From NCBI GenBank assembly GCA_043228905.1, contig JBHGNT010000018.1, positions 15,810,001-15,874,000 of the forward strand: a DNA stretch of 64,000 nt. Direction: 5' to 3'. Source of the DNA: Azolla caroliniana (Eukaryota; Plantae; Polypodiophyta). Every line of letters starts with the position of its first letter. Position 1 is the stretch's first letter. Shown piece by piece: positions 2,080 through 64,000 of this stretch. Below the pieces are notes generated by a model that saw nothing but the letters and a program-made list of their open reading frames with translations, was not told the origin of the DNA and did not search any database. Both the position numbers and the translations under genes were made by a program.

Positions 2080-2674
2080 TGTTGGGATTACGGTCCCTTC
2101 GGATGGGATGGTCGGATGTCGGAGATGAATGCCGACGAGCCCGGTTTCGGTTTCGGAACCGGATGATGAAGACCCCGGCTTCGGAGCCGGATGACGAATG
2201 TACCCGGAGAGAGATCCGGATGCGGGGACATATCCGTGAATATGTTTGCTACGGGCCCTTGAGGCTATAGTTGTAAATAGCCCCAAAGTCATATGTGTAT
2301 AAATATGACTTAGGGCAAACAGTTTTAATGTTGCTTCTTATTTTTCTGTTTTTCCACTCAAGAGGAGTGAAGAGAGAGCAGCCGTGAGAGAGATAGAGCG
2401 TGAGAGAGGAAGAGGTCGACGCCTCTGTGTATTTCCGCCGCCTGTGGCGAGGACAGCGAGCTCAAGGTCGTCGCCTTGCAGCTCGCCATTGTATACTTCT
2501 CTGTCCATAGTTTTGGTTCGGAGTCTTGTACTCCCGTGGTTTTTCCCGTACAGGGTTTTCCACGTTAAATCGTGTGTCCACTGCATTTCCCATCTTCTGC
2601 AACAACGATTCGTGTGTTTCCTTGGTTGTGGCCGAGAGGTGAAGTTTTGGAAAGTGTCGATTAATTTTCCATCA
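2080..2674 (+). repeat. 3' LTR of Copia A
   Basis: Starts TG right after the PPT and ends CA. U3/R nearly identical to the LTRs at 30246, 34978 and 36576; U5 is different. Confidence 0.9.
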
Positions 2675-4227
2675 CCTCCCTCTCTCTACGCACAGAGTTG
2701 CTGCATCCATGGATATACATATATATATGGTCATGCCTGCTGCACCATGATGGAACGTTTCAATTTCGGAAGGAAGGGAGATGATGGAAGAACAACTGGG
2801 TATAATGCCAAGGAACACAAAGTTCTTGAAGGATCAAATGGACATTGAGAAGGTAAAGTTTAAGAAGAAGTTTGTCATCTCAGAGATGGTAGAAGCAGTC
2901 ACCTTCTGCGTTGAAAACAAAGATGGAGGTCGACCTAAGAAAACATGAAACTTCCATGAAAGCAATGGAAGAGGAAGCCGAGAGAGCTTCTAGGAAACAC
3001 TCTGCCATGATCACTTCGCTACATAAAGCGCTGAGAATGAAGTAATGTGAGGAGGATGAAAGGTTTGTTTCAAATGCCCCTTCCTACACCCCAATAGACA
3101 CACAGACCCAAACTCATTAAACCTTATCAAACTTTACTCCCTCTATTTTATCTCTCTCACTTGCATCATTACTATGGCTTATTCTCCCTCTTTTTCTATC
3201 CATAGCCACACCTAGCTCTCTCTCTACTTCCTCCCCTTTTTCTTATACAATTTAATTATTAATCCATCTCATATTCTCTCCCTATCTCCCTCCCTTCTCT
3301 TTCAGATCAAGCCCATGGATCAACAACCGACAAACGGCAGCAGTTGGACAGACACGACTGCCGAACAGTGCCAGTGGATACGGCTGTTCATCCAAACTGG
3401 CTGTCGACGGAGACAGTGGATACGGCTGGCCGGACAAAAGGTTCGACGACCAGCCTCCGTCGACGAAGAGCCGGACAGAAGGTCCCACAAAGAACGAGAC
3501 AACGAAGAACAAGGATTGTAAGAAGAAACTGAAGCCATGGAAGAGGCAGTGCCTGCTTCAAGAAGGAAATAGAAGGAGAAGAAGAAGAAGACGAAGAGGA
3601 GAAGAACGATGAGGGAGAGGACGAGGATCGAGTAGAAGAACGCAACAAAAGACAGAGAAGAAAGAGAAAGGAAGACAGACAAAGAAGAAGGTACAGAAAG
3701 AGGAGGAGAAGAAACAGAGAGAGGACGACCACAGATAGAAAGAGAGAGAAGAAAACATCAGGGGCATCCGACAAAATTTTCGAAACATAAGGGCAAATAA
3801 GAAGAAATTTCAAAAACCATGAGGACTTCCGAGTGGATTTCAAAAAGTGAAGGGCAGAAAGCAGAATTTCGAAAAATGAAGGGCCAAAAAAAAAAAAAAA
3901 AAAACTTGAGGGTAAAATTTTTTAGAGACCAAGGGTACAAAATACAAAGCTCAATTCACATGATGAAACCGAAAAATACACATACATGTAATAGAATCAT
4001 GAAAGGCCTATGCCGCAATGGAGGAGCCAATTAGTGTGTGATCCAATTGAGCGACATGCTGACCGAACGAGAAGGTTCGAGTCAAGCAATGCTCTGATCG
4101 AAGTTATCGATCGTAGAGCTATGATCCGGTCGATGGATTTTCGACCGTTGAGACGATTGATGAAGTTCCGGTCGTTAATAGTTGCCATGGCGAGTGGGTT
4201 CACTGTGCGATGCATTGTCCCACAGGC

Positions 4228-5964
4228 TGTGACGGATCATAAACTCAAGAGACAACCAAGAAGATAACCAAATGGACAAGAAAGAAGATAGTACTAAAGG
4301 AAAGACTCCATAACTGTTGTTGTTCACCTTGAATTCCTTCAAGGTGAACTCCTCTATTTATACTACATGGCATGCATACTTGTTGCACGCATGTGAATCT
4401 ACAATAGAGCATGTAGATATGCATGCATGTGCCAAGTGTAAATACTACAAGGGAGCAACTATGCACATGATGCTAGCAAAATAATAAGGACCAATTACAT
4501 ACATAACTAGTACTAGATATCTTGGTTAACTCATAATACTAGATTATAACATGGTCGTGTCAAGAGTTCGAATCTTGACATTATCCCCCCTCTTACGCCG
4601 CCTTCCCAAATCGGCCGCTGGTTTGTGGGGATATCGGTGATGAAAATCTTGGACGACCTCTGGGGCATTTTGTAAATTTGCCGATGGTTCCCATGTGGCC
4701 TCAGACATGGGGTAACCCCTCCATAGGATGAGGTATTGCAAGTGTCGACGGTGCCAACGCGAGTCAAGGATTTGGTCGACCTCGTATTCCTCCCCTGTCG
4801 TCAATTGCACAGGTGGTAGTGGTGGGGCTTGACGTCCTGGGAGTTGTGAAGCATAATGGGGTTCGAGGAGGGAGACATGAAAAACATCGTGAATCCGGAA
4901 GTGGGATGGAAGGGCGAGCCGAAAGGCGATGGGATTGATGCACTCGATGATATGGAATGGTCCCAACTTCTTGTAATCAAGTTTCGCACATGGACGAGTA
5001 GTAGAGATGTGTCGACGTAACAACCAGACCATGTCTCCAACGACAAAGTGTGGAGTGGAAGATCGATGGCGATCAGCCTGCTTCTTGTATCGTTCACTAG
5101 CAAGACTAAGCTCCAAGGATAAATCATGATGTACTTCTTCCAAAATGCGGGCACGATCCTCCGCCGAAGGGTTTACGGAAGTGGTAGGAAGGGAAATGTT
5201 GAAGCGAGGATGTAAACCATAGTTGGCAAAGAAGGGAGTGACGCCAGTCGATGCATGGAGAGAATTATTGTAGGCAAATTCCGCGAGCGAAAGTAAGTTG
5301 ACCCAATCATCTTGTTGGTAACTAACCGAGCACCGAAGATACTGCTCAAGGATTTGGTTGACACGCTCCGTTTGCCCGTCAGTTTGGGGGTGATAAGCGG
5401 AGGACAACTTGACAGAGATGCCTAAAGTTTGTAGCAGGCGCTGCCAAAAGTGAGAGATAAACTGGGGTCCGCGATCCGAGATGACATCATCGGGGAGTCC
5501 ATGCAAGCGTACTACATTGTTGAGTAGGAGATGCACCATTCCTTCTCCGGAAATGGTTTTGGAGCATGGAGTGAAGTGAGCCATCTTCGTAAACTGATCG
5601 ACAACGACCAACACCGAGTCATAGCTATTGACCAAGGGTAGATCAGTTATCAGGTCCATAGAGATAGAGGCCCAAGGACGACGAGGACATGGAAGCGACT
5701 GTAGTAAGCCGTATGGCCGATGATGAATGGCTTTGGAGCGAGCACAAACCTCACAACTCTTTATGTATTCTTTGACCAGCTTCCATGGTTGTGGCCACTA
5801 ATACCCTCGAGAGATTAGCTCGAGGGTTTTCGCGACCCCGAAATGACCTGCAAGTGGGTCATCGTGGCATTCCCGCAACACTCGGGTGCGACATGGGCCC
5901 TCTGGGACGTATAAGAGATGATCTCGGAACAACAAACCCTCTTGTATGGGTTCGAATCTTGACA
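4228..5964 (-). mobile_element. Internally deleted Ty3/gypsy chromovirus K (Tcn1-like)
   Basis: TG...CA ends with perfect TSD CAGGC (4223-4227 / 5965-5969). 3' LTR 4228-4580, PPT AAGAGGGGGGATAA next to 4580. Only about 17 bp of the 5' LTR remain, fused to pol upstream of integrase. Confidence 0.9.
4544..5947 (-). pseudogene. Integrase plus chromodomain of K
   Basis: HHCC finger (HDDPLAGH...CEVC), core (SMDLITDLP, SDRGPQF, QTDGQTERVNQ), GPF/Y (KLGPF, HDVFHVSLL), chromodomain EYEVDQIL...YLILWRGY...TWEP. One TGG>TAG stop near 5797-5800; the supplied ORF 4544-5659 is open. Confidence 0.92.
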
Positions 5965-5977
5965 CAGGCGTGCCATG

Positions 5978-6318
5978 TGTTACCCGTAGGAGTTGTACGG
6001 GGCGGTATAATGGTAGAACACATTAAAGGGGTTGTTCGGTATATGTAATGTATATGAGTGTGAGGATGAGTATGTGTGAGCACATGCACAATTATGTGCA
6101 TGTGACAAGAATGTAACGGTCTCTTTTTGTAACGGACATATTTACCGTTACATTATGTACTATAAAAACCCCTTATGGGGGCACATAAGGAAGATAGTTT
6201 TTCCCCCTCTCATTTGGTGTCATTTCCTATTTGTCTTTCTCTCTTGTTCTCTCTCTAACGTAACCCCCTTGGGAGGGGGGTGAAGCCATTCTAGGCTTCA
6301 CCCCCCCACCCAACAACA
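5978..6318 (+). repeat. LTR of element L
   Basis: TGTTACCC...CAACAACA, TATAAAAA near 6161 followed by a CT-rich segment; reverse-complement homolog of 20930-21278 and 23209-23563. Confidence 0.9.
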
Positions 6319-19990: not shown

Positions 19991-20929
19991 AAGCACAGAA
20001 AATACAGGCGAGCAAAGCGACTAGCATTCTCACCCAGGCGAATAGACAATAGAACTTGACCAACAACACATGAAAGGCATTGCGACTCTCTCTGTTGAGC
20101 ACTGACAACAATGAAGACATTCACATAGAAGAAGAGGAAGGAGCCATGCTAATGGAAGTATCAGAGCGCTTGCATCGATGGCTAAAGATGAATAGTCTAG
20201 AAGGGTATCTTCGAATGGCGTACACAGAGCCCCACCCTCACGTAGAAGACATAGTAAAAGAAATCAACATCGAAAGAATCACGCGTCGGTTCCTCAATTT
20301 GAAAAAAGAGGAGTATGATGAAATAGATACTCTCAAAGCCGACATTCTGTAGTCATATTTCAGCGAATATTCTCCATCAACAAAGGCTTATAGGACTCAG
20401 GGAGGGGAGGACCTATTTTTTCAAGATGTGGCAAAATTTCTTTTGGAGGTCACTTGTGTCAGTCCGCAGTCCTATTGTATCCCCAAACAGAGGGTTGGTT
20501 TCATAATCGTGAGATAGGAGATGATATAAATGCCTTCTTAAGACTCTCAAAAGCCATGTCCGCTTCTTTAGACCAAACAAATGACTGCCCCTTGGTAAGT
20601 TGTGTGAGAGGTAGAATAAGCTTTGAGTAATCCGGTATAAACTTGCGGCAAAAATTGGCAAAACCTAAAAAACATTGCACATCTCGCAATGAATGTGGAG
20701 TCTGCCACTCTACCACAGTTTTGACCTTAGCTGGATCCATAGAGATGCCTTTCAAGGACATGACATAGCCCAGAAATTCCACTTGGTTGCACTCGAAACT
20801 ACATTTTTCTAGGTTTACATAAAGACCATGTTCTCGAAGCTGTTTATGTACTAATAGTACATGAGAATCATGCTCTTCTTGGGTCTTCGAATAAACTAGT
20901 AGATCATCCAAATAGATGATCAAACCAAC

Positions 20930-23563
20930 TGTTGTTGGGGTGGGGGGTGAAGCCCCAAGGGGGTTACGATAGTGAGAGAGCTAGAGAGAAAGACAAATTG
21001 AAAATGACACCAAATGAGAGGGGAAAAAACTATATCTCATTACATGCCCCATAAGGGGTTTATATATTACATAATGTAACGGTAAATAATATGTCTGTTA
21101 CAAAAAGAGACCGTTATAAATAAGACCGTTACACATTCTTGTACACATGCACATAATTGTGCATGTGTCCATACACATACACATACTCATCCTCACACAC
21201 TCATTTACTTTACCCATACACATCAACCACATCATTACACATACCCTTATGCCTCCCCGTATATTCTTACGGGTAACACATGGCACGCTTGTGGGACAGT
21301 GCATTGCACGGTGAACCCACTCGCCATGACAACTCTTCTCGACCGAAACTCCATTGGTCATCTAAACAGTCGAAAATCCCTCGACCGGATCACTGCTCTA
21401 CGATCGATAACTTTGATCGGAGCTTTGCTTGACTCGAACCTTCTCGTTCGGTCAACACAAGTCACGATTGGATCATACACCAATCGGCTAGTTCACTATG
21501 GCATGGGTCGTCAAATCGTATTGTGCATTTGTGCATTCTTTCTTTCATCATGTGAAATGAGTTTTATATTTTTTACCCGTTGGTCTTTAAAATTTTGCCC
21601 TCATGTTTTTTTAAATTTTTTTTATTTTATGCCCTTGAGTTTTCGAAAATTTCTCTTCTACCCTTATGTTTCTGAAATTTTCTCTTCATACTCCTCTTCT
21701 CTTCCTTCATTTCCTTATATTCTCCTCTTTTTTCTTCTCTTCTTCTGCTTCTTCCTCCTCCACTTCGTTTCTTCCTGTTTTCCTTCTCTGTGTGTATGTT
21801 CTATCTTTTTCTTTTTCCGTGGTCATCTATGGCCATTTCCATCCGTGTCGTCACCATCTCTCCGGCCAACTCTATCGGCCACTACTATTATGCGGGTTCT
21901 ACCATGTCTTTTCGGACACCTGTCGAACTTCAGCCATCTCTTGGGCTCTGCCACCGTCGATCTTCGTTCGTCCACTCTGTCGGATGTTGAAGGGCAGGCT
22001 CTTGGCTGACATTTCTGTCTCAGCCGATTCTCGGCCCAGCCGCCTGGCCGGCTTTGTCCGGCCACCGCCGTCTGTCGGTTGTCAAACCGGCTCTGTCCTA
22101 CGACCATCACTCACTCGGCCATCTTTGTCCGGTTGGTCGTCACTTGGCCGTCGTCGTCCATCTGTCGGCTGGCCATGTTTGTTCGCAGGCCGGCTGTCGA
22201 ACGTCGTCCGTCGCCGTTCGTCGGTGGCCGACTGTCCGCTCGGGCGAGGAGATGGTGGTGGTGGTGGTGAACTGGGCCTCACTCCACTCTCTGAACCAGA
22301 TGTAGAGTTTCCATAAGAGCTCACTGTAGAGGGAGATACATTTCCATAAGGCACATTACATCTAGAGCCATGTGATCCCAAGTTCGCATTCCTACTCATT
22401 CCACCATAGCTCTAATTTAGATTTAGACTTAGGCTCAGAGTTGCCATAGGAAGGGGGGAGAGCTTGGGTGAAAGCGATGGAGTGGGGAGTGATGATCGTT
22501 GCCATAGCTGTGAAGAGTATTTGGGACAGACAAACAAACACGTAGAGAGGAAGGTGAGATGAGGAGGGGATGATGAATGTAGAGAGGGGATGATGATGGT
22601 AAAGGCATCACAAGCATATGCAAAGTCATCATCATGATCCTCCCCCTCCTCCTGTGGATTCTCCATCATCATGTGGGTGTGTCTAAGAATCTGTAAAATG
22701 CCCACAAGTCACTACCACCACCAAGGGAAAAGGGAACAAGGAAGGCAGGAGAGAGAGGGAGAAGAATATTGCGTGCTTCCAAATCATTTTTCTCTGTACG
22801 TGTTTCTAAGCTTTGTACGTGTTTGTAAGAGAGCTAGACTGATAGCCTTTTCACCGGGACGCAACTGTGGACCAATTCTTCCAGAATCCTTTTCTCCCAA
22901 AATCTTATGCATCAATTTTTCTTCTCAGCCATGGGAACTTCAGCCATGATCTCCATGTCTTCTTCAAGTCTTTCATCTCATCAAAAACCTCTGATCGTAT
23001 CATGTAGAGAGTTTTTCACCAAAAACCTCTAATAAAAATGGCTCACCATATAGTGATTGTATGCACAAAAACACACTCTCTAACACACACAAGTAGAGAC
23101 ATAGAGAGGGAGGGTGAAAGATTAGTGCTGGAGAGAGGGAGAGGGAGAGTGAGGGAGGGAGAGATCACCTCTTCTCAAGGGAGGTCGGCCGTTCGGGCGT
23201 GCCAAAAGTGTTGTTGGGGTGGGGGGTGAAGCCATTCTCCCAAGGGGGTTACGATAGTGAGAGAGCTAGAGAGAAAGACAAATTGAAAATGACACCAAAT
23301 GAGAGGGGAAAAAACTATATCTCATTACATGCCCCATAAGGGGTTTATATATTACATAATGTAACGGTAAATAATATGTCCGTTACAAAAAGAGACCGTT
23401 ATAAATAAGACCGTTACACATTCTTGTACACATGCACATAATTGTGCATGTGTCCATACACATACACATACTCATCCTCACACACTCATTTACTTTACAC
23501 ATACACATCAACCACATCATTACACATACCCTTATGCATCCCCGTATATTCTTATGGGTAACA
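20930..23563 (-). mobile_element. Complete non-coding LTR element J (about 2.6 kb, TRIM/LARD-like)
   Basis: LTRs 20930-21278 and 23209-23563 (TG...CA), perfect TSD CCAAC (20925-20929 / 23564-23568), no protein domain. Strand inferred from the TATAAAAA-then-CT-rich order seen in the L copy. Confidence 0.93.
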
Positions 23564-25929
23564 CCAACATCCAAGAGATCTCGGAATATATCATTTGCCA
23601 TGTGCTGGAAGATTGTTGGCGCATTAATGAGACCAAATGGCATGACCGTATACTCGAAGTGCCCATAACTAGTGCGAAACGTGGTCTTCCATTCATCTCC
23701 TGGTCAGATCCGTACGAGGTTATATGCTCCTCGTAAGTCGATCTTTGTGAAGAACCTTGCACCATTGATCCATTCTAAAAGACTTAAGATAAGGGGAGTA
23801 CATACCTATTCCTGATGGTGACCATATTCAAGCCACAATAATCTACGACGAGAAGAAGTGATCCATCCTTTTTCTTGACAAAGAAAATGGGTGCGTCGGC
23901 TGGAGATTTCGAATGTCGAATGAAACCGTTTGCCAGTTTCTCCTTTATATAGGCTCGAAGGACTTCTAACTTGGTTGGTGACAAGTTGTAGATTGGTCCC
24001 CATGGTGGCTCTTTTCCGAGTTGTAAATCAATGGGGCAATCATACGCTCGGTGGTAAGGAAGCGTATTGGCTTGTACCTTATCGAACACATTCACATAAT
24101 GATGATACTTCTTTGGATGTTGAACTGTGGATTCCTCTTTAGTGGTGTTGCAAGGTTTTACTGATACCGCGAAGACGAACATTGCTTCCTTGCGTCCTTC
24201 CTCACCCAATTGATGTAGTGAAATGGTTTCAATCCTATGAGTAGATCCTCGGGTTTGTCGATACTGGATTTCTCTTGTTCTCTAATCTATGTCTAGGCTA
24301 TGTAATTTGAACCATGGTAATCCCAAAACAATGGGATGTTCTGGGCTACTAATTATATTAAATGATACTACACACGCTAAATTATCTAGGAAAATATTAA
24401 CTAACTCTGAGACTTCTATGATATTTCTGGAAGCGATGGGACGACCATCAATGACTACTACCGAGCCTAGACAAGGGAGTTTTCTTAGGGATATCTTATG
24501 AGCTTGGGCAAAATTCCTATCCATGAAGCAAGAATTAGCTCCAGAATCTAGGAGTGTTAAGACATGTACTAGAGGGGTACTTTTAGTACTAACTATTACT
24601 TGAGCGAAGAACACATTGCTAACTTGCTTAGAGGGAATGGAACTACTAATGGGCTGCATAGATCTAGGGTTGTCCAACCAAACGGCTCCTATTTTGGTTG
24701 GACTTAGTCATTTAACTCTTCTTCTAACTAACTAAGGACATCAAATTTGTTTGATAGACTTGGGCTATTAGTACTATTAGGACTATTAGACACTCCTACT
24801 GAAATAGACTCAAGTTTAGTACAAGCAACTATTTGATTTACCTGTCTTCTTGGCCTATGTGGGCAGTTTATTGCGATATGCCCTGGTCCTCCACAATAAA
24901 GACATAATCGATTAACTCGACGTCGTTGCTTTTCTTCTTCCGACAATGGTCCATGACGACGTGTGGTATTGATTTCCATTGGTGTTGGAGTATTTGCCAG
25001 AGATGCATGATATGACTCCCTTGCAAATGGTTTTGCTACGACCGAGGCGTATGTGGGCTCCGACCTGGTCCTTGGCATTTGTAACTGGCGTTCCGAACGT
25101 CGCTCGAAAAGCCGGTTATCGCATCGTACCACTCGATTGATTGCCTTTGTGAGCGATTTTGGTTCTTCGGAGAAAGTCAGGAGTAAGTCTTTGACATCAT
25201 TTCGTATGTCGTATCGAAATTTCTCCATCAATGCTTGGTCATTCCAAGGGATATCAGAAGCGAGTAGACGAAAATCTACAACGTAAGCGGAGGCTGGACA
25301 ATCACCTTGACGTAATTGTCAGATTTTGTTGATTGCCATCCTTATGCTACCAGTATCTCCAAAACAGGCTTTAAACTCGTTTATAAACTCTTCAAAATTA
25401 TTTAGTAAGGAAGAACTTGTTTCCAACAATGGAGCGAACCATGCCAAAGCTGAGCCGCTTAGTAACGTGCCTACTAGACCCACTCGTGATGCATCGGTGG
25501 GATATCGGGAAGGATGCATTTGAATGACTAATCATACCTGATTAAGGAATCCTCTGAACTGTGATCACATTGCATCGAATTTCATTCGAAGGCCGATCTT
25601 GGGCTCTTTCTGAATCCCTTGAGTACTTGATCCTTATTGTTGCAATGCTACAATGGTTGCTTCAAGTTGTTGCACGCGTAACACTAACTCCCCATGTTGT
25701 TGTTGCGCTTGGTGCTTTTCTAAAGAGATTTGTTGAAGATGCCCCAACAACCGTTGATTTTCTTGTTCCAATGCGACAAACCTTTCTTTCAAGCACAGCA
25801 GCTCCGAGAAAACAGATTGGTATTCTTGAGTGCTAACAATTGCCATAGTATTGGAGGAAGGAAGGATACGAAGATTAGTATGAAGGGAATGAGGGATACG
25901 AAGCTGAAGAGGGAAAAATCAGTTCAAAC

Positions 25930-29749: not shown

Positions 29750-30870
29750 TGTCATGAAGGAGAACGTCCCCAGGCGCAAACCGTGTATAGCGTATGTGAA
29801 CTGGCCCTTACACCTGGGCACGCCCCTTGTTGTATAGTAGATAGGTAGGCGCAAAAGTCAAATCCTAGGTAGCAATATTTTATAGGGGAAATCGAGGAGT
29901 ATCTCTGTCCAAAAGGACCGAGAATTAATGTGATGTAAATGGGTGAGACGGTCTCCCTCCTTGAGCTATAAAAGAGAGGGAGACGGGGGAGAAGGTATGG
30001 CGCGCTGGAGGGGACGAAGTGCTGTCGGACTGGGACCGAGCTCTTCTTCTCTCCATAGCTTTCTTTTGCGCAGGTTCTCAGGAGGCTGATTCTGCTCCGT
30101 AGAACGCCCGTGTGCTTCCGGCAGAATCTCCATCTTGCTCCCCTGTGTGCGTGGGTGATCAGGCGTCGGCATTCATCTCGCCGACCTGATCGGCTATAAC
30201 CGTTCGAGTCGTCTGCATACATATATTTACATACATACTCTAGTGTGTTGGGATTACGGTCCCTTCGGATGGGATGGTCGGATGTCGGAGATGAATGCCG
30301 ACAAGCCCGGTTGCGGTTTCGGAACCGGATGATGAAGACCCCGGCTTCGGAGCCGGATGACGAATGTACCCGGAGAGAGATCCGGATGCGGGGACATATC
30401 TGTGAATATGTTTGCCAAGGGCCCTTGAGGCTATAGTTGTAAATAGCCCCAAAGTCATATGTGTATAAATATGACTTAGGGCAAACAGGTTTATTGTTGC
30501 TACTCATTTTTCTGTTTTTCCACTCAAGAGGAGTGAAGAGAGAGAGCAGCCGTGAGAGAGAGAGAGCGTGAGAGAGGAAGAGGTCGACGCCTCTGTGTAA
30601 TACCGCCGCCTGTGGCGAGGACAGCGAGCTCAAGGTCGTCGCCTTGCAGCTCGCCATTGTATATTTCCCAGCGTGTAGTGATCGTTGGAGGCTTGCACTC
30701 CCGTGGTTTTTCCCGTCTAGGGTTTTCCACGTTAATCCCTGTGTATTCGTGTTTTTTCTCTGTGGTTCCTATTTTCTGCTGCATTGATTCGCGCTTACTC
30801 GGTTGTGGCCGAGTGGTGAAGGTTAATCGGAGCGTCGATTTCTCAACAAACTGGTATCAGAGCGACTGCA

Positions 30871-33800
30871 GTGCAGAAAATGGAAGGCGGCAGCAGCGGG
30901 CAGCCGGGAATGATGGTGCTGAATGTGCAGAATTACGCCGACTGGAAGATCAAGATGGAGGATCTTCTGATTGTTCAGGACCTGTACGAACCGATTGACA
31001 GGTCGGAAATACCGAAGGGGGTACTTGAGTCGGAATGGAGGCTTCTGAACCGGAAAGCCGTTGCAACCATTCGGCAATACGTCGACGTGAGCGTTCTACA
31101 ACATGTGGCGAACGACATCAACGCATATGAGATGTGGCGGAAGCTGTCGGGCCTCTACGAGAGGAAGAATGCGTTGAACCGGACCTCCCTGATGAGGAAG
31201 ATAGTGAACCTCAAGTACCGGGACGGCGAGAGTATGGTGGAACACGTAAGCACGTTCATGGGATTCGTGAATCAGCTTGCGGCGATCAAGTTCCCGCTGG
31301 AGGATGCAATGCAAGCCATCATTCTGATGTGTACATTGCCCGAAAGCTGGGAGAACTTGGTGGTGACTCTCAGCACCTCCTGCACGGAAGATAAGTTGTC
31401 CCTACAAACGGTAAAGACAAGTATTTTGAACGAAGAAGCGCGTTGGAGAGATAAAGAACCGGCCTCCGACTCGAAGGCGCTGCTTACCGAATCGGAACGG
31501 GGAAGACACTGGAACCGGAGTCCGCAAAGACGGGAGAAGTCGGGGACCCGGTCGCAGTCAAGAGGAAGACCCACCTGCTTCCACTATGGGAAGCCGGGGC
31601 ACTTCCGGAAGAATTGTCGGCATTACCGAAAGGACAACGGAGCCGACGACACCGATTCGAAGAAGTCACCGGAGAGAAACGGTGCATACCGGGGAGCCAC
31701 GGACCGGAGAGGTCCGGATCGGCGAGGGCAGGACCGGAAAGGAACGACGGCACTCGCGGCAAGTGAGGAAGAAATCATGCTCATCACCGAAGAAGGTGAA
31801 CTAAACATTGCCGGCGATGAGACGACCTGGGTGGTCGATTCCGGAGCATCGTTCCACCTGACCCCGGAGAGAAGATACTTCTCATCCTACACAGCCGGTG
31901 AGCATGGCTGTGTTCGGATGGGAAATGAAGGTACGTGCCGGATTGCCGGCATAGGAGACGTGTGGTTGACAACCCCGACCGGATGCAAAATGCTGCTGAA
32001 GGATGTCCGACACGTTCCGGAGGTTCGATTGAACCTGATTTCGGCCGGGAGGCTAGACGATGAAGACTACACAGGTAGCATCCGGAACGGCGTAATGAAG
32101 TTCAGCAAGGGGAGCCTGATAGTGGCTCGGGCCCGGAAAGTCAACACACTGTACCTGATGAATGCCCGTTTATGTCCGGAAGAGCTGAATGTGGCAGCCG
32201 ACACTGCCGGTGAGCTGTGGCACAAAAGACTGTGCCACATGAGTGAGAAGGGGATGAAGAGGCTTGGAGAAGACAACCTTATTCCAGTGAAGCATGTGCA
32301 CCTGGAGAAGTGGACCGATTTCCTGGCCGGTAAGCAGAACCGAACCTCCTTCCACTCAAGGCCACCGACGAGACGTAGCGCACCATTGGAGTTGGTGCAC
32401 ACTGATGTGTGTCAGGTAGAAACGAAGTCACATGGCGGAGCCCAGTACTTCGTAACATTCATAGATGATCATAGCCGAAAACTGTGGACGGCACCGATGA
32501 AGACAAAGGACCAAGTGTTGTCCGTCTTCAAAGAACTCCACGCGAGCGTGGAAAGAGAATCCGGCAAGAAGCTGAAAGCGATACGAGCGGATAACGGAGG
32601 GGAATACCGGGGGCAGTTCGCGGAGTACTGTCGCTCGAAGGGAATCCGGCTCGAGTTTATTGTGCCGAAGACGCCGGAACTGAACGGGCTGGCCGAGAGG
32701 ATGAACCGGACCATAATGGAGAGGGTCCGGAGTATGCTGGCGCATGCAGGATTACCCAAGGGGTTTTGGGCTGAGGCGATGTCGACGGCGACATACGTGA
32801 TAAACAGATCACCCTCAGTACCTTTGGACGGAGACACGCCGCAGAGAGTGTGGACCGGTAGGGAAGTATCCTACCGGCATCTGAAGGTGTTCGGGTGTCT
32901 CGCATACGTGCATGTGGCAAAGGACCGGAGAGGAAAGCTAGATCCAAAGACCCGGCCATGCATATTCCTCGGTTACGGCGACGACGAGTTCGGCTACCGA
33001 GTATGGGACCCGGTCGACAAGAAGATATTCCGGAGTCGTGATATCATCTTCATGGAGAACAAGACACTCGCCGACTGGGAGTCGGAGAAGAAGATGAAGA
33101 GCTCGAAGTCGACCGGTGAGGATCAACTCTACGAGGAGCAGTCCCGACCGGCAAGGGACCGGTTAGCACTCGAGGATCCGGCCGAAGACGGTGAAGAAAC
33201 AGAACCGGCCGAAGAAGATGAAAATGATACCGGAACCGGCCCCGATCCCGAAATGGATTCGGATGAAGAAGAATCGGAAGAACCGGTTACCGAAGCTCCG
33301 GAACAGAGATATCCTCTAAGAGAGAGAAGGGCCCCCCGGAGATTTCCGGAACCAGAGCACGTGCTGCTAACCGACGAAGGGGAGCCGGAGAGCTTTGAAG
33401 AAGCAAAGCATGACACCTAGAGCCGCAGGTGGTTGAGTGCCATGCAGGACGAGATGGATTCCCTGCATGAGAACCACACATATGAACTTGTGGAGTTGCC
33501 GAAAGGAAAGCGGGCACTTCGAAACAAGTGGGTGTTCAAGCTGAAACCGGGAGATGCCGGAAACCCCCCGAGATACAAAGCCAGGATCGTGGTGAAGGGG
33601 TTTCAGCAGAAGAAGGGCGTCGACTTCGACGAGATATTTGCCCCGGTAGTGAAGATGACCTCAATCCGGACGGTGCTGAGCATAGCGGCAAGCACGGACC
33701 TCGAGGTAGAACAGATGGACGTGAAGACGACATTCCTTCACGGTGACCTCGAAGAAGAGATCTACATGCAGCAACCGGAAGGATTCGAGAAGAAAGGGAA

Positions 33801-34926
33801 GGAGCACCTGGTATGCCGGTTGAAGAAGAGCCTTTACGGACTGAAGCAGGCTCCCCGGCAATGGTACCGGAAGTTCGACTCTTTCATGACCGACGAAGGG
33901 TACCTGAAAACGCAGTCCGACCACTGCGTGTTTGTGAAGAAGTTCGAAGGAGGAGACTTTCTAATACTCCTCCTGTACGTGGACGACATGTTGATCGTCG
34001 GACGAGACCAGGTCAAGATACGGATGCTGAAGAAGGCTCTTCACCGAACCTTCTCAATGAAGGACCTGGGTCCGGCGAGGCAAATACTAGGGATGCACAT
34101 CATCCGGGACCGGAAGAAGAAGCAGTTGTGGCTGTCACAGGAGAAGTACGTGACAAAGGTGCTTCACCGGTTCAACATGTCAGAAGCAAGACCGGTCGGA
34201 TCGACCCTCCTGGCAAACTGCAAGCTGTCCAGCAAGCAAAGCCCCAAGACAAAGGCTGAGAAGGAGGACATGATGAAAGTGCCATATGCCTCTGCCGTCG
34301 GAAGCTTGATGTACGCAATGGTGTGTACAAGACCGGACATTGGATACGCAGTCGGAGTGGTGAGCCGGTACATGAGCAATCCCGGCAAAGAGCATTGGAA
34401 CGCGGCCAAGTGGATACTCCGATACCTGAAAGGCACGGCAAACGTGTGCCTCCGATTCGGCTCCGATAAGCCCGAACTCGACGGCTTCACCGATTCGGAT
34501 ATGTCGGCTGATGGAGATACCAGCCGGTCCACATCAGGGTATGTGATGACGTATGCAGGGGGAGCTGTTTCATGGCAGTCGAGGCTGCAGAAGACGGTTG
34601 CGTTGTCAACCACGGAGGCGGAGTACATGGCGGTTGTTGAAGCCGGCAAGGAAATAATATGGATGAAGGACTTCATTAGAGAGCTCGGTATCCGGCAGGA
34701 GGAGTACCGACTCTACTGCGACAGTCAGAGTGCAATCCACCTTGCGAAGAACGCGGCCTATCAATCCCGGACAAAGCACATCCAGCGAAGATATCACTGG
34801 ATCCGGGAAAGGATAGAAGACAAGGAGTTCGTGCTGACGAAGGTCCACACGGACGAGAACGGGTCGGATATGCTGACCAAGGTGCTCACACCCGACAAGC
34901 TGGAAGCATGCCGGAAAAGGGTTTAG
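30871..34926 (+). pseudogene. Copia B gag-pol, one internal TAG (33418-33420) and a telomere-derived premature stop
   Basis: NYADWKIKMEDLL, LPESWENL, degenerate knuckle CFHYGKPGHFRKNC, WVVDSGASFH, LWHKRLCH, ADNGGEY, NGLAERMNRT, YVDD, RNase H. ORFs 30871-33420 and 33433-34926 share a frame. Confidence 0.94.
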
Positions 34927-34938
34927 GGTTTAGGGTTT
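34918..34938 (+). repeat. (AGGGTTT)3 plant telomeric repeat filler
   Basis: AGGGTTTAGGGTTTAGGGTTT sits where the homologous segments (about 2033-2045 and 36530-36541) read AGGATCGGATTG. Confidence 0.85.
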
Positions 34939-35581
34939 GTTGGGAAAGACATCCCATGCCGAAGTGAAGGGGGAGTTTGTTGGGATTACGGTCCCTTCGG
35001 ATGGGATGGTCGGATGTCGGAAATGAATGCCGACGACCCCGGTTTCGGTTTCGGTACCGGATGATGAAGATCCCGGCTTCGGAGCCGGATGACGAATGTA
35101 CCCGGAGAGAGATCCGGATGCGGGGACATATCCGTGAATATGTTTGCTAAGGGCCCTTGAGGCTATAGTTGTAAATAGCCCTAAAGTCATATGTGTATAA
35201 ATATGACTTAGGGCAAACAGTTTTATGTTGCTTCTTATTTTTCTGTTTTTCCACTTAAGAGGAGTGAAGAGAGAGAGCTGCCGTGAGAGAGATAGAGCGT
35301 GAGAGAGGAAGAGGTCGACGCCTCTGTGTAATACCGCCGCCTGTGGCGAGGACAGCGAGCTCAAGGTCGTCGCCTTGCAGTTCGCCATTGTATATTTCTC
35401 TGTGCATAGTTTTGGTTTGGAGTCTTGTACTCCCGTGGTTTTTTCCCGTCTAGGGTTTTCCACGTTAATCCCTGTGTATTCGTGTTCTTTCTTTGTGGTT
35501 CCTATTTTCTGCTGCATTGATTCGTGCTTACTCGGTTGTGGCCGAGTGGTGAAGGTTAATTGGAGCGTCGATTACTCAACA

Positions 35582-36565
35582 CTCCTGTACGTGGACGACA
35601 TGTTGATCGTCGGACGAGACCAGGTCAAGATACGGATGCTGAAGAAGGCTCTTCACCGAACCTTCTCAATGAAGGACCTGGGTCCGGCGAGGCAAATACT
35701 AGGGATGCACATCATCCGGTACCGGAAGAAGAAGCAGTTGTGGCTGTCACAGGAGAAGTACGTGACAAAGGTGCTTCACCGGTTCAACATGTCGGAAGCA
35801 AGACCGGTCGGGTCAACACTCCCGGCAAACTGCAAGCTGTCCAGCAAGCAAAGCCCCAAGACAAAGGCTGAGAAGGAGGACATGATGAAAGTACCATATG
35901 CCTCTGCCGTCGGGAGCTTGATGTACGCAATTGTGTGTACCCGACCTGACATAGGATATGCAGTCGGAGTGGTGAGCCGGTACATGAGCAATCCCGGCAA
36001 AGAGCATTGGAACGCGGCCAAGTGGATACTCCGATACCTGAAGGGCACGACAAACGTGTGCCTCCGATTCGGCTCTGGTAAGCCTGAACTCGACGGCTTC
36101 ACCGATTCGGATATGTCAGCTGATGCAGATACCAGCCGGTCCACATCAGGGTATGTGATGACGTATGCAGGGGGAGCTGTTTCATGGCAGTCGAGGCTGC
36201 AGAAGACGGTTGCGTTGTCAACCACGGAGGCGGAGTACATGGCGGTTGTTGAAGCCGGCAAGGAAATAATATGGATGAAGGACTTCATTAGAGAGCTCGG
36301 TATCCGGCAGGAGGAGTACCGACTCTACTGCGACAGTCAGAGTGCAATCCACCTTGCGAAGAACGCGGCCTATCACTCCCGGACGAAGCACATCCAGCGA
36401 AGATATCACTGGATCCGGGAAAGGATAGAAGACAAGGAGTTTGTGCTGACGAAGATCCACACGGACGAGAACGGGTCGGATATGCTGACCAAGGTGCTCA
36501 CACCCGACAAGCTGGAAGCATGCCGGAAGAGGATCGGATTGGAGAGACATCCCATGCCGAAGTGA
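35582..36565 (+). pseudogene. Second RT(C-terminal)-RNase H segment of B, starting at LLYVDD
   Basis: Directly follows the CA of the middle LTR with no PBS; duplicates about 33970-34967. Confidence 0.93.
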
Positions 36566-37352
36566 AGGGGGAGTTTGTTGGGATTACGGTCCCTTCGGAT
36601 GGGATGGTCGGATGTCGGAGATGAATGCCGACAAGCCCGGTTGCGGTTTCGGAACCGGATGATGAAGACCCCGGCTTCGGAGCCGGATGACGAACGTACC
36701 CGGAGAGAGATCCAGATGCGGGGACATATCTGTGAATATGTTTGCCAAGGGCCCTTGAGGCTATAGTTGTAAATAGCCCCAAAGTCATATGTGTATAAAT
36801 ATGACTTAGGGCAAACAGTTTTAATGTTGCTACTCATTTTTCTGTTTTTCCACTCAAGAGGAGTGAAGAGAGAGAGCAGCCGTGAGAGAGATAGAGCGTG
36901 AGAGAGGAAGAGGTCGACGCCTCTGTGTAATACCGCTGCCTGTGGCGAGGACAGCGAGCTCAAGGTCGTCGCCTTGCAGCTCGCCATTGTATATTTCCCA
37001 GCGTATAGTGATAGTTGGAGGCTTGCACTCCCGTGGTTTTTCCCGTCTAGGGTTTTCCACGTTAATCCCTGTGTATTCGTGTTTTTTCTCTGTGGTTCCT
37101 ATTTTCTGCTGCATTGATTCGTGCTTACTCGGTTGTGGCCGAGTGGTGAAGGTTAATCGGAGCGTCGATTTCTCAACATAGTGTTCTCAACTCGTGTCTC
37201 TTGTGTTGTTGGGCCTCGTCCCCGTGCACTTCTTTGTCTATACGTGAGTGAGCGTCTCTCTCTCTCTCTCCCTTTTCTCACCTATTCCTTGGTCCAAGAA
37301 CCCAGTGGTCCCGCCTTGTTCTCCACGTACGCGCGTAACAACGCGGCATATT

Positions 37353-54205: not shown

Positions 54206-54954
54206 TGTGAAAGTGTTTTTAGAATCTAAGCCATTGAACATTAGGAGAATATAAAGTATAGATAATTCACCTTTTGAGGATAAGAACACGAACTAAGACC
54301 TTAGGGAAGAAGTCAAAAGTAAAAGTACGAGACCAAGAGAAAAGTAAAAAGAGAAAACGCAGACTATAAAAAACAGTAAAAATAGAATGGTCATAACTCC
54401 CTCGTTGTTTATCCAAATATCACGTTTAAATATGGATTAGAAAGCTTGTAAAAAGAGCTTTCTATAGCTTTTAAAATCGCTTAATTTGGATTTCGGATGA
54501 GGGAGATATGACGATTAGAAGGTTGATGTGTCATAGCTAAAAATAGGGAGATAAAAAGCTTCTAAAAATAGCATGAACGTGGATAAGAAGAGGCAGGTTA
54601 TAAAAGAAGAAGTAATATTAGTGAGAAGGGGGGCTAAGAGTGAAGGCCAAAGAGTGGATGAGGAGTGTTAGGAAGAAGTGTCTTTGTGGAAGAGGAAGTG
54701 TCTTAGAAGAGGAAGGTCTTTGGTTTTAGTTCAATGTGGAGTTTGTCTCCTTTGTATTCTCTTGATGTTGGAATATCAGAACATTCTTATTTCTTGCTCG
54801 CTTTCTCTATCTTTTTTCTTAGTTTCTTGAGTTATACTCTCCAATCATAATTACCTAGAGCTATATAATATATTATGATTTTCAACTCCATCTAATCGGT
54901 TTGGTCAAGCCCTCATATAGTGTATAACTATCTATTATCTTATACACCCTATCA
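54206..54954 (+). repeat. LTR of array unit 1 (copies at 57396-58144, 60586-61334, partial 63776-64000)
   Basis: TG...CA ends, PPT upstream of copies 2-4, PBS downstream; TATAAAAG near 54599. Confidence 0.92.
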
Positions 54955-54957
54955 TTT

Positions 54958-54978
54958 TGGCGCTCCAGGGAGGGTCGA
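54958..54978 (+). promoter_or_regulatory. Primer-binding site, probably tRNA-Asn (also 58148 and 61338)
   Basis: TGGCGCTCCAGGGAGGGTCGA, 3 nt after the LTR. Resembles the complement of the recalled plant tRNA-Asn 3' end (TGGCGCTAGAAGGAGGGGTCGA); tRNA identity inferred. Confidence 0.7.
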
Positions 54979-55041
54979 TCCTTTCCGTATAGGAAGAGAA
55001 GTTATCATTTAATTGTGTTACTATATTACATTAACTTAGCT

Positions 55042-57135
55042 ATGCAATTTGCATTTTCGGGTGAAAGAACACAAGATGCTGGTGCCTTTTTGGCATGCTT
55101 TGAGCATCATGCCATATCTATTGGACGCATCACCGACAACGAAAAGTTGCCCTTGTTGGTAGCTACATTCTATGGTCGTGCTCGAGATTGGTATGACTCT
55201 CTTCCGCAAAATGAACAAGGAGAATATCAATTATTGGTGCATCAATTTCGTACAAGATATATTCAATGGAAAAGTGCAACTGAGGTAAGGGAGGAGCTTT
55301 TTCAACTAAAGATGGAATCACCTTTTGGTTTTTTAGAGTATGAACGAAATTTCCAAGAATTGTGGACGACGTGGATTCGTCTTCGTGGTGGCACCGAAGA
55401 CGAGTGGTTTAAGATAGAACAATTTAAGGTGGGCCTTGATATGCATTTCCGTTTGGAGGCAAGCTTGAAGGATCCAACGACTTTTCAAGCTCTTCTCCAA
55501 GTTTGTCAAGATTATGATCGACAAGTGAAGATGATGAGTTCCATGGGGGATCCCCAAATGACGGCTTTGGGTGCAAATTTGATGCCTCGTGCCAACTTTC
55601 AAGCCTTATCTTCAATTGTGCATGGTGGACAAGTGTTTCCAAATGTGTATACCACCACAACAATAAGTATATCTCAAGAAGTGGAACAAGTGAAGAGTGA
55701 ACAAGATACAATGGCGTTGGTGAATCGGCGCTTTGATGAAGTGATGGCCCACTTGCAACAATCCCAAGCAATTCGCAACACTATTCCCGATGGTGGTGGC
55801 TCTAGAGGGCATCACGGTGTAATTTGTTATTCTTGTCAAGAGGAGGGACCCATCTCAACAAGATGTCCTCATCGACAACAAAGAGGTATGGAAAGAGACA
55901 TGTATGAAGTGCAACGGAATGGACAACGACCTATCAACAATGGAGTCGAAGGAGGCGAATCCATAACACTTCCAATGACTCAGGTTCCTACAATTCCTCA
56001 TAATGTGAATCTTCTTAATTTTATTGATGATAGTGATAGTGCTTGTGAAGTAGCTCTTGTGAAAAGGACAAGAGCCTCGCAAAAGGAGAAAGAAGTTGAA
56101 GGAGAATCTAGTGACTCAAGACAAAAGAAGAAGTCTAAGGAGAATGAGAAAGAGGACAAATTGAGAAGGAGACACTCTAGAAGGAAGATAAAGATGGAGG
56201 ATATTCCTATGGGAGAAGGTGTAGAATCTTTCAATCGGAAGCATGAATTGATATCGAGTGGACCAAGGATAACATGGCCGCAACTTCTCCAATTATCATC
56301 CACATTACAAAATGAGTGGGGGAGGCTTGTGAGTATTTGCCAAAGTCAAAAGACCGTGCATTACGTGGGGATCATGCGAGTAGAAGATCGAAAGGACATA
56401 CGTCCAATCATCCCTGTCTCCATCAAAGGGGTTCACATCAAAGATGCCTTGGGTGATAGTGGTGCTAGGGTAAGCTTGATTTCTGAATTTGTAGTAAACA
56501 AAGTAGGAATTCCTATTAGTAGGTCATCTTCAACAAGGGTGGTTGTAGTAGATAGTGGAGTGGTGCATTGCACAAGCATAGTGGAGGATGTGTTCATCAA
56601 GTGTTTTGGAATAAGAGGAGAAGCTTGCAACAAATACCACATCAACTTGAAGGAAAGTGTATCAATTTCCCCAAAGCTTCGGCAATTGAGTGTTGAACAA
56701 AAGGAAGAATTTATGCAAGAGTTCAACGCATGGTTACAAGAAAGTTCCAATTATAAGATGGAAGATTTGAGGTGTGTGTCACCTATAGTTTTGGTTCCAA
56801 AGAAGAATGAGATCAATTTCAAAGCCTTGAATGATTCGACCAAACGAGATGAATTTTCACTTCCTTCTCGAGATGAGATTGTCGATAAAATGGTGGTTTA
56901 TACAAAACAAGGTAGTGTGGACAATATGTTGTGCCAAAAAGGATTTCATGTGGATGATTCAAAGATTAACATAATTACAAAGATGACAATTCCGACAAGT
57001 CTTGAAGCTTTGAAAGTATTTGTGCAAAAGGTGCGCTCGCTCGAAAGATTCATTTATATGTTGACATGCTTACTGCTATCAAGAGTGATGTATCCCATGG
57101 CCCTACTAGTCTTTGGAGCGTTAACGAAGACATAA
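55042..57135 (+). CDS. 697-aa Gag-protease-RT-remnant polyprotein, copy 1
   Basis: First ATG at 55042 (supplied ORF starts 55015). Capsid motifs FSGE...F...FE and GRARDWYDSL, knuckle CYSCQEEGPISTRC, protease LGDSGA, RT pieces SPIVLVPKK and NFKALN...DEFSLP; no YxDD, RH or INT. Confidence 0.88.
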   Translation: MQFAFSGERTQDAGAFLACFEHHAISIGRITDNEKLPLLVATFYGRARDWYDSLPQNEQGEYQLLVHQFRTRYIQWKSATEVREELFQLKMESPFGFLEYERNFQELWTTWIRLRGGTEDEWFKIEQFKVGLDMHFRLEASLKDPTTFQALLQVCQDYDRQVKMMSSMGDPQMTALGANLMPRANFQALSSIVHGGQVFPNVYTTTTISISQEVEQVKSEQDTMALVNRRFDEVMAHLQQSQAIRNTIPDGGGSRGHHGVICYSCQEEGPISTRCPHRQQRGMERDMYEVQRNGQRPINNGVEGGESITLPMTQVPTIPHNVNLLNFIDDSDSACEVALVKRTRASQKEKEVEGESSDSRQKKKSKENEKEDKLRRRHSRRKIKMEDIPMGEGVESFNRKHELISSGPRITWPQLLQLSSTLQNEWGRLVSICQSQKTVHYVGIMRVEDRKDIRPIIPVSIKGVHIKDALGDSGARVSLISEFVVNKVGIPISRSSSTRVVVVDSGVVHCTSIVEDVFIKCFGIRGEACNKYHINLKESVSISPKLRQLSVEQKEEFMQEFNAWLQESSNYKMEDLRCVSPIVLVPKKNEINFKALNDSTKRDEFSLPSRDEIVDKMVVYTKQGSVDNMLCQKGFHVDDSKINIITKMTIPTSLEALKVFVQKVRSLERFIYMLTCLLLSRVMYPMALLVFGALTKT

Positions 57136-58231
57136 TGATTGTGGTAACCTCTTTCTTTGTGTTGACAAGGAGAAAGATGATGATGGAATTGTCAATGTGT
57201 GTGTGGGTGTGTCTAGGAGTGTGAGGTTTTTCCTACCGACTAGCGGGGGTTTTACTCACATAGTTTGTTTCTTTTTATTATATCTCTCTCATTTTCTATA
57301 GCCAAGAGATTGGCGAGAGAGCTTTTGTTTGTTAAGTACTGCCAATAAGTGCTTCGCCATAAATGGCTTAGCCTCTAACAAGGGGGAGGGCTAAATGTGA
57401 AAGTGTTTTTAGAATCTAAGCCATTGAACATTAGGAGAATATAAAGTATAGATAATTCACCTTTTGAGGATAAGAACACGAACTAAGACCTTAGGGAAGA
57501 AGTCAAAAGTAAAAGTACGAGACCAAGAGAAAAGTAAAAAGAGAAAACGCAGACTATAAAAAACAGTAAAAATAGAATGGTCATAACTCCCTCGTTGTTT
57601 ATCCAAATATCACGTTTAAATATGGATTAGAAAGCTTGTAAAAAGAGCTTTCTATAGCTTTTTAAATCGCTTAATTTGGATTTCGGATGAGGGAGATATG
57701 ACGATTAGAAGGTTGATGTGTCATAGCTAAAAATAGGGAGATAAAAAGCTTCTAAAAATAGCATGAACGTGGATAAGAAGAGGCAGGTTATAAAAGAAGA
57801 AGTAATATTAGTGAGAAGGGGGGCTAAGAGTGAAGGCCAAAGAGTGGATGAGGAGTGTTAGGAAGAAGTGTCTTTGTGGAAGAGGAAGTGTCTTAGAAGA
57901 GGAAGGTCTTTGGTTTTAGTTCAATGTGGAGTTTGTCTCCTTTGTATTCTCTTGATGTTGGAATATCAGAACATTCTTATTTCTTGCTCGCTTTCTCTAT
58001 CTTTTTTCTTAGTTTCTTGAGTTATACTCTCCAATCATAATTACCTAGAGCTATATAATATATTATGATTTTCAACTCCATCTAATCGGTTTGGTCAAGC
58101 CCTCATATAGTGTATAACTATCTATTATCTTATACACCCTATCATTTTGGCGCTCCAGGGAGGGTCGATCCTTTCCGTATAGGAAGAGAAGTTATCATTT
58201 AATTGTGTTACTATATTACATTAACTTAGCT

Positions 58232-60325: not shown

Positions 60326-61421
60326 TGATTGTGGTAACCTCTTTCTTTGTGTTGACAAGGAGAAAGATGATGATGGAATTGTCAATGTGTGTGTGGGTGT
60401 GTCTAGGAGTGTGAGGTTTTTCCTACCGACTAGCGGGGGTTTTACTCACATAGTTTGTTTCTTTTTATTATATCTCTCTCATTTTCTATAGCCAAGAGAT
60501 TGGCGAGAGAGCTTTTGTTTGTTAAGTACTGCCAATAAGTGCTTCGCCATAAATGGCTTAGCCTCTAACAAGGGGGAGGGCTAAATGTGAAAGTGTTTTT
60601 AGAATCTAAGCCATTGAACATTAGGAGAATATAAAGTATAGATAATTCACCTTTTGAGGATAAGAACACGAACTAAGACCTTAGGGAAGAAGTCAAAAGT
60701 AAAAGTACGAGACCAAGAGAAAAGTAAAAAGAGAAAACGCAGACTATAAAAAACAGTAAAAATAGAATGGTCATAACTCCCTCGTTGTTTATCCAAATAT
60801 CACGTTTAAATATGGATTAGAAAGCTTGTAAAAAGAGCTTTCTATAGCTTTTAAAATCGCTTAATTTGGATTTCGGATGAGGGAGATATGACGATTAGAA
60901 GGTTGATGTGTCATAGCTAAAAATAGGGAGATAAAAAGCTTCTAAAAATAGCATGAACGTGGATAAGAAGAGGCAGGTTATAAAAGAAGAAGTAATATTA
61001 GTGAGAAGGGGGGCTAAGAGTGAAGGCCAAAGAGTGGATGAGGAGTGTTAGGAAGAAGTGTCTTTGTGGAAGAGGAAGTGTCTTAGAAGAGGAAGGTCTT
61101 TGGTTTTAGTTCAATGTGGAGTTTGTCTCCTTTGTATTCTCTTGATGTTGGAATATCAGAACATTCTTATTTCTTGCTCGCTTTCTCTATCTTTTTTCTT
61201 AGTTTCTTGAGTTATACTCTCCAATCATAATTACCTAGAGCTATATAATATATTATGATTTTCAACTCCATCTAATCGGTTTGGTCAAGCCCTCATATAG
61301 TGTATAACTATCTATTATCTTATACACCCTATCATTTTGGCGCTCCAGGGAGGGTCGATCCTTTCCGTATAGGAAGAGAAGTTATCATTTAATTGTGTTA
61401 CTATATTACATTAACTTAGCT

Positions 61422-63515: not shown

Positions 63516-64000
63516 TGATTGTGGTAACCTCTTTCTTTGTGTTGACAAGGAGAAAGATGATGATGGAATTGTCAATGTGTGTGTGGGTGTGTCTAGGAGT
63601 GTGAGGTTTTTCCTACCGACTAGCGGGGGTTTTACTCACATAGTTTGTTTCTTTTTATTATATCTCTCTCATTTTCTATAGCCAAGAGATTGGCGAGAGA
63701 GCTTTTGTTTGTTAAGTACTGCCAATAAGTGCTTCGCCATAAATGGCTTAGCCTCTAACAAGGGGGAGGGCTAAATGTGAAAGTGTTTTTAGAATCTAAG
63801 CCATTGAACATTAGGAGAATATAAAGTATAGATAATTCACCTTTTGAGGATAAGAACACGAACTAAGACCTTAGGGAAGAAGTCAAAAGTAAAAGTACGA
63901 GACCAAGAGAAAAGTAAAAAGAGAAAACGCAGACTATAAAAAACAGTAAAAATAGAATGGTCATAACTCCCTCGTTGTTTATCCAAATATCACGTTTAAA

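Follow-up and report, generated by a model that had tools for sequence, protein, structure and literature searches.

In the long terminal repeat (LTR) retrotransposons Ty1 and Ty3, the minus strand is primed by a tRNA at a bipartite primer binding site (PBS) that also pairs with the tRNA T-arm, and the plus strand starts from a polypurine tract (PPT) that resists RNase H, a mode of plus-strand priming that the available text of PMC5371799 treats as common to retroviruses and LTR retrotransposons. Among the OTA elements, plant non-chromovirus members of Ty3/gypsy, a tRNA-Arg PBS occurs in 64%, 89% and 30% of TatIII, Ogre and Retand elements, respectively, together with a 5-bp target site duplication (TSD), according to the available text of PMC6317226. 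Here, an element named J was analysed in 64,000 nt of the fern Azolla caroliniana (assembly GCA_043228905.1, contig JBHGNT010000018.1, positions 15,810,001 to 15,874,000; hereafter the window, in whose coordinates all positions are given). J, a non-autonomous LTR retrotransposon, lacks a PPT and carries, in its place, a copy of the 3' end of tRNA-Arg(UCU). We lean towards the view that J primes both of its DNA strands with host tRNA-Arg, a second tRNA starting the plus strand on minus-strand DNA.

Like Ty1 and Ty3, J has LTRs, a tRNA PBS and a primer end a few nucleotides from the LTR. Unlike in Ty3, whose 3' PBS part is complementary to the tRNA on the RNA and serves the minus strand (available text of PMC5371799), the 3' motif of J is the tRNA's own sequence, so that tRNA binding there is possible only on cDNA. 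With TatIII, Ogre and Retand, J shares the tRNA-Arg PBS and the 5-bp TSD, a likeness that is suggestive only, J having no pol from which the RT-RH-INT phylogeny and archaeal-type RNase H domain of that group could be read; a dual PBS is not mentioned for OTA elements in the consulted part of PMC6317226. Non-canonical priming is also described for Tf1/Sushi, Tcn1 and TAR (self-priming) and, in the text available from PMC5006619, for Dictyostelium Skipper (the accessible part of PMC3350952 gives context on Tcn1 only), but there the minus-strand primer is altered, whereas J keeps its PBS and has its plus-strand signal replaced. The J family resembles maize Bs1, likewise a non-autonomous LTR element that carries fragments of more than one host gene; it differs in that its cargo varies between constant ends, and the part of PMC13317346 that was available mentions no priming anomaly for Bs1. 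The open literature, a scope that excludes most subscription papers and Repbase, yielded no account of a tRNA site that occupies the PPT slot, and PMC3185511 does not mention tRNA. The feature described below is real, conserved and outside the canonical scheme.

J spans 20930-23563, and its two LTRs, with TG...CA ends, differ in alignment by 4 substitutions and one 6-bp indel. Its features, named for the RNA orientation argued for below, are as follows.

20925..20929, plus strand: left copy of the TSD CCAAC
20930..21278, minus strand: 3' LTR in the presumed RNA orientation, 349 bp, delimited by alignment; U3 begins at 21278
21279..21280, minus strand: 2-nt spacer from the cassette CCA to U3, resembling the 2-3 nt PPT-LTR spacer of neighbouring elements
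21281..21297, minus strand: copy, in the PPT slot, of the tRNA-Arg(UCU) 3' end (made up of T-stem 3' strand, acceptor 3' strand and CCA); predicted tRNA-binding site on minus-strand cDNA
21298..21310, minus strand: 13-nt hairpin inserted at the T-loop position
21311..21320, minus strand: continuation of the tRNA copy (T-stem 5' strand and T-loop part)
21321..21678, minus strand: conserved 3' non-coding region common to element L and to the relatives L009 and L013 (78-80% identical to J), with several predicted hairpins
21679..23186, minus strand: variable cargo region and CT-rich leader
23187..23204, minus strand: minus-strand PBS for tRNA-Arg(UCU), in which 10-11 contiguous matches are followed by a mismatch loop and then by partial matching of GGAC
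23205..23208, minus strand: 4-nt spacer CTTT between U5 and PBS
23209..23563, minus strand: 5' LTR in the presumed RNA orientation, 355 bp, with TATATAAA at 23351-23344 followed by pyrimidine-rich R/U5
23564..23568, plus strand: right copy of the TSD CCAAC

When translated separately, the flanks of J read as the two halves of a single chromovirus-type reverse transcriptase (RT) frame, which the element interrupts, so the insertion is clean, as the original prediction held from the TG...CA ends and the TSD. Direct LTRs with TG...CA ends, a TSD within 4-6 bp and a tRNA PBS inside the 5' LTR place J among the non-autonomous LTR retrotransposons, while the PPT directly before the 3' LTR that canonical replication calls for is lacking in both orientations. 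Neither gag nor pol was found in J, and no Pfam match fell below E 1e-3 among the J segments scanned. Several other assignments were rejected. TRIM elements, the terminal-repeat retrotransposons in miniature, have by definition a very short non-coding interior with PBS and PPT; J has an interior of 1.93 kb and no PPT. A Pack-type DNA transposon with terminal inverted repeats does not fit, as the inverted motifs of J are internal and the TSD flanks the LTRs. For a tRNA gene or a tRNA-derived SINE, ARAGORN returned 0 genes in the window and Rfam no tRNA match in 20900-23600 up to E 5; sub-threshold Rfam miRNA matches on J were treated as chance. The LTRs also contain a hairpin near the U5 end (20950-20959 and 23229-23244) whose length varies among copies: it holds the 6-bp indel between the J LTRs and is longer in the right-border run contigs, L010 and L013.

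Both tRNA motifs lie where they had been reported: TGGCACGCTTGTGGGAC at 21281-21297 on the plus strand, 2 nt inside the left LTR, and TGGCACGCCCG at 23204-23194 on the minus strand, 4 nt inside the right LTR. The left motif proved longer than first noted, reaching across the hairpin into the T loop and T stem as far as 21320. The resulting cassette (21281-21320) reproduces approximately the final 28 nt of the tRNA, comprising acceptor strand, T stem and T loop, with the 13-nt hairpin within the T loop, and is one base shorter than the tRNA at the acceptor/T junction. The probes were non-host tRNAs, namely a phage tRNA-Arg(tct) (L018), which was picked after the motif had been seen, and a partial tRNA of bacterial origin that has UCU in its anticodon loop (L003); they support the proposed tRNA-Arg(UCU) isotype. 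A further candidate, L019, was discarded as it is not a tRNA. With the phage probe, at least 8 contiguous nucleotides that match the complement of the tRNA-Arg(UCU) 3' end occur only at 21281 (plus), 23204 (minus) and 5975 (minus) among about 128,000 positions on both strands, and these are the three LTR borders. Since about 4e-6 chance 10-mers would be expected no more than 6 positions from any given border, the motifs are not chance matches. The duplex of cassette and tRNA reaches -43.8 kcal/mol with the part beyond the hairpin, compared with -31.0 for the first 17 nt (RNA parameters, non-host tRNA), and only 1 of 8,528 sampled windows scores as high, namely the cassette of element L fused to the end of element K.

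A T-loop-like 10-mer, which also has the shape of a Pol III B-box, lies at 21437-21446 on the minus strand, about 140 nt upstream of the cassette, and is identical in J, L, L009, L013 and the tRNA probe; it may be an extra tRNA contact or chance. MAFFT aligned the tRNA probe to this 10-mer and not to the cassette.

The absence of a PPT at both LTR borders of J, also part of the original prediction, was borne out in both orientations. Purines make up 56% of the 25 nt preceding the LTR in the plus and 44% in the minus orientation, and the longest purine run within the last 100 nt in the minus orientation is 8 nt, situated 54 nt from the LTR. The GA run near the right LTR, pointed out in the original prediction, is the complement of the CT-rich leader and no PPT candidate. 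In the same window, a Copia element and K have their PPT 2-3 nt before the LTR, and the CCA end of the cassette, 2 nt from U3, matches that position.

The RNA of J most likely reads on the window minus strand, because host-gene fragments in the family are one-stranded and TATATAAA is followed by pyrimidine-rich sequence. Pfam matches with E<1e-4 were obtained in 7 of 71 segments of relatives in the J minus sense and, even at E<1e-3, in 0 of 76 antisense segments (minimum 58 aa, or 50 aa in the window; L005, 94% identical to L013, was left out). The pieces come from Prp18, a filament-like protein (FPP), the Tim17 family, tubulin, Nramp, WD40 and a CCCH zinc finger, and are found in L006, L008, L010, L011 and L013. 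The copies thus carry differing cargo all on one strand, as in a Pack-like LTR family, and the two L013 pieces are enclosed by the family's ends. Among named proteins, those closest to the L008 fragment come from ferns, with 74-80% identity, as fits a fern host. By eye, the L006 and L008 pieces run into intron-like sequence, and some may be flanking genes or assembly chimeras. Also judged by eye, L014 holds an eEF1A start, while L011 has pieces that are E2F/DEL-like and MADS-like. In J, and likewise in 5 of 5 relatives checked, TATATAAA stands 116-167 nt ahead of the LTR end on the PBS side. Capture through template switching between co-packaged RNAs has been described (available text of PMC13317346); we would expect it to give cargo in the sense orientation. 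The family appears to shuffle host-gene fragments, and it may be speculated that the cassette itself is a tRNA end captured by the same template switching.

With the RNA on the minus strand, 23204-23187 is an ordinary PBS and 21281-21320 occupies the PPT slot. The orientation could conceivably be the reverse, the cassette at 21281 being an extended true PBS, like the bipartite one of Ty1, and 23204 the second-strand site; tRNAs would prime both strands in that case too, and the transcript of either strand could in principle serve as template. The left site does have the longer and stronger tRNA match (-43.8 versus -32.0 kcal/mol at the right site) and the usual 2-nt spacer, and the Ty1 PBS is split by an internal loop (available text of PMC5371799), but the captured gene fragments and the layout of TATA and pyrimidines point the opposite way, which makes the reversed orientation improbable.

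Conservation of the two borders was examined in five of 20 listed runs from four organisms, four runs for each border: X1, X4, X5 and X11 (organisms A, A, B and C) for the right and X1, X5, X11 and X14 (A, B, C and E) for the left, where X1 may be the window's own source. The comparison takes contigs at least 80% alike, and its summed depth is not equivalent to copy number. In the right border (23183-23213), the sole substitution among the rows listed (40 of 44) is G23199A, a CpG change at 8-13%, and the motif and the LTR have summed depths of similar magnitude; zero cover at 23128-23160 reflects skipped repeats. In the left border, 21272-21288 shows no substitution among the rows listed (40 of 57). 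Among the same rows, in X1, X5, X11 and X14, C accounts for 92, 90, 97 and 28% of depth at position 21289 and for 70, 74, 92 and 88% at position 21290, making the TT of J the minority form in most runs. Both positions vary between C and T on the strand that faces guanines of the tRNA, so pairing is kept as G-T. In three runs, G21301A and C21307T occur at similar depths, as would suit a compensated pair in the hairpin, although the two are unphased. Both motifs are therefore conserved far beyond the window, in run contigs of four organisms, as had been anticipated.

Summed depth peaks on the cassette and falls on the J-like flanks, most sharply in X14 (about 51,000-101,000 versus 11-265), and loose ends join other LTR ends to the cassette, so other LTR families have the cassette as well. 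In X11, one contig contains a 40-nt back-step at 21278-21317, a tandem duplication of almost exactly the cassette unit.

In addition, a metagenome scan with a 19-letter pattern yielded 14 loci, comprising 10 relatives, one bacterial tRNA (L003) and three GC-rich bacterial coding matches (L001, L007 and L012), which were dropped. The pattern fixes the motif in the 10 relatives, so that its first 10 nt are not independently tested by them, and their accessions form one series counted as a single source. With these 10 positions fixed in the relatives, the right motif matches the tRNA at 11-16 of 18 positions in J and the 10 relatives. The L009 contig runs from the PBS through to the cassette and ends 8 nt short of the CCA; its T-stem changes are not compensatory. 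L013 and L005 extend to the conserved 3' region. The internal region of L009 also contains three and a half repeats of plant telomere type.

Given this conservation, we consider it very improbable that the motif arose by chance or persists as a passive relic, with J as a dead and rearranged member of some family that has a PPT: there are decayed positions in J and L, but chance is excluded, the borders are conserved across organisms, the LTRs are nearly identical and the TSD is exact. The findings named beforehand as contradicting the original prediction, a PPT in most copies or a motif that is not conserved or matches no tRNA, were not encountered.

Under tRNA priming of both strands, the RNA would correspond to the window minus strand, and the RT of a helper element would use tRNA-Arg at the PBS (23204) for the minus strand. 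After the first transfer and removal of the RNA by RNase H, the cassette on minus-strand DNA would become a second PBS, at which a second tRNA would pair over 17 nt, loop out the 13-nt hairpin and pair over 9-10 nt more via its T loop and T stem. Synthesis would then begin 2 nt before U3, RNase H would remove the tRNA, and integrase would trim 2 nt here and 4 nt at the other end. The anatomy on which the original prediction built this idea, namely conserved motifs, isotype and position in the PPT slot, has held, while the priming itself is deduced from it.

The element's own RNA could instead be the plus-strand primer. As a tRNA mimic, the cassette would be spared by RNase H and cut just after the CCA in the manner of a PPT, reusing the enzyme's recognition of tRNA-DNA junctions. 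RNase H normally cuts mixed RNA/DNA hybrids, and the sequence is only 44% purine; position and spacer are nevertheless those of a PPT, no second tRNA is needed, and the cassette is predicted to form a T-arm-like stem within a longer stem. PPT recognition is also enzyme-specific, as shown by the RT of Ty3 (available text of PMC5371799). This explanation leaves the renewed tRNA complementarity after the hairpin unaccounted for. A real tRNA as partner is favoured because complementarity resumes past the hairpin and C/T variation occurs only opposite G of the tRNA; priming from the element's own RNA is accordingly rather unlikely, though the most serious competitor.

The original prediction also considered that the two sites close the RNA into a panhandle, which might serve circularisation, packaging or minus-strand self-priming, the plus strand starting from an unrecognised site. 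The sites are indeed complementary over up to 11 nt with the majority letters, and the J duplex reaches -23.7 kcal/mol. In the 2.3-kb fold of J, however, their mean pairing probability is 0.003, a weak test given the two changes in the J cassette and the unreliability of long-range folding. The PBS of L009 keeps C where its own cassette would offer A, the T-arm part is complementary to the tRNA and not to the PBS flank, and the start of the plus strand is left unexplained. The panhandle thus gained little support, and we give it a low probability.

Several points weigh against dual tRNA priming. The priming route is read from sequence, and the pairing was computed with the phage and partial bacterial tRNAs, which are not those of the host. 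No autonomous partner was found in the window, the viral contigs or the genome contigs. No third cassette or PBS came up when the window was searched with fuzzy matching, so it holds no helper element; the border patterns gave 0 matches in viral contigs, and three bacterial matches in genome contigs, without a tRNA gene, were treated as chance. Methylation-driven decay would also give C/T variation at 21289-21290, and the J cassette itself carries two changes from the majority letters. Moreover, the cassette is predicted to fold into a local stem-loop in RNA and DNA, which could mask the site or be what is really under selection. Its pairing probability in the full-length J fold is only 0.18; as DNA, 21270-21480 has a z of -2.47, and as RNA, 21270-21400 is no stabler than shuffles (z 0.15). 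We speculate that this stem-loop may keep the cassette from blocking the PBS. Lastly, with the 80% identity filter and a depth that is not copy number, a PPT-bearing subfamily with the same LTR would show only as loose ends; those behind 21278 have no shared sequence (agreement 0.35-0.37 among the rows listed, 24 of 235).

A second element, L, is interrupted by K in the same window:

2664..4227, plus strand: internal part of L up to the cassette, its 5' end cut off by a Copia insertion
4228..5964: K, a chromodomain element inside the L cassette, with TSD CAGGC
5970..6318, plus strand: rest of the L cassette, 2-nt spacer and 3' LTR (5978-6318)

The motif of L, split by K into 4217-4227 and 5970-5977, is as originally described. 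L is inverted relative to J and its other end lies outside the window, so it confirms only the left motif of J and not both borders. K is a chromodomain integrase element that retains one complete LTR; its opposite end has only about 15 nt of LTR, which meets integrase sequence at a TTCGAAC microhomology. Elsewhere in the window, a Copia element at 30242-37189 has three LTRs and a duplicated 1.6-kb pol-LTR segment and is 95-98% like the copy at 1-2663. At 54206-64000, a 735-codon gag-protease-truncated RT frame is present in three near-identical tandem copies (3190-bp period, 99.97-100%), representing a recent duplication or an assembly artefact.

In summary, an abundant group of fern LTR retrotransposons, with gene-capturing non-autonomous satellites such as J, probably replicates without a PPT, tRNA-Arg priming both strands and the second strand starting from a captured tRNA end to which the tRNA anneals with a looped-out hairpin; our confidence in this is a little better than even. 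If true, the PPT would not be universal in LTR reverse transcription, and the near symmetry of the layout would allow either transcript to be copied. A successful lineage in which the PPT has been replaced would demonstrate that RT and RNase H are able to set the U3 end by means of a tRNA primer, and annotation tools that score the PPT, or that use the best PBS as their guide to orientation, would overlook such elements or turn them round. Even if the element's own RNA were the primer, a non-purine primer that mimics a tRNA would be new.
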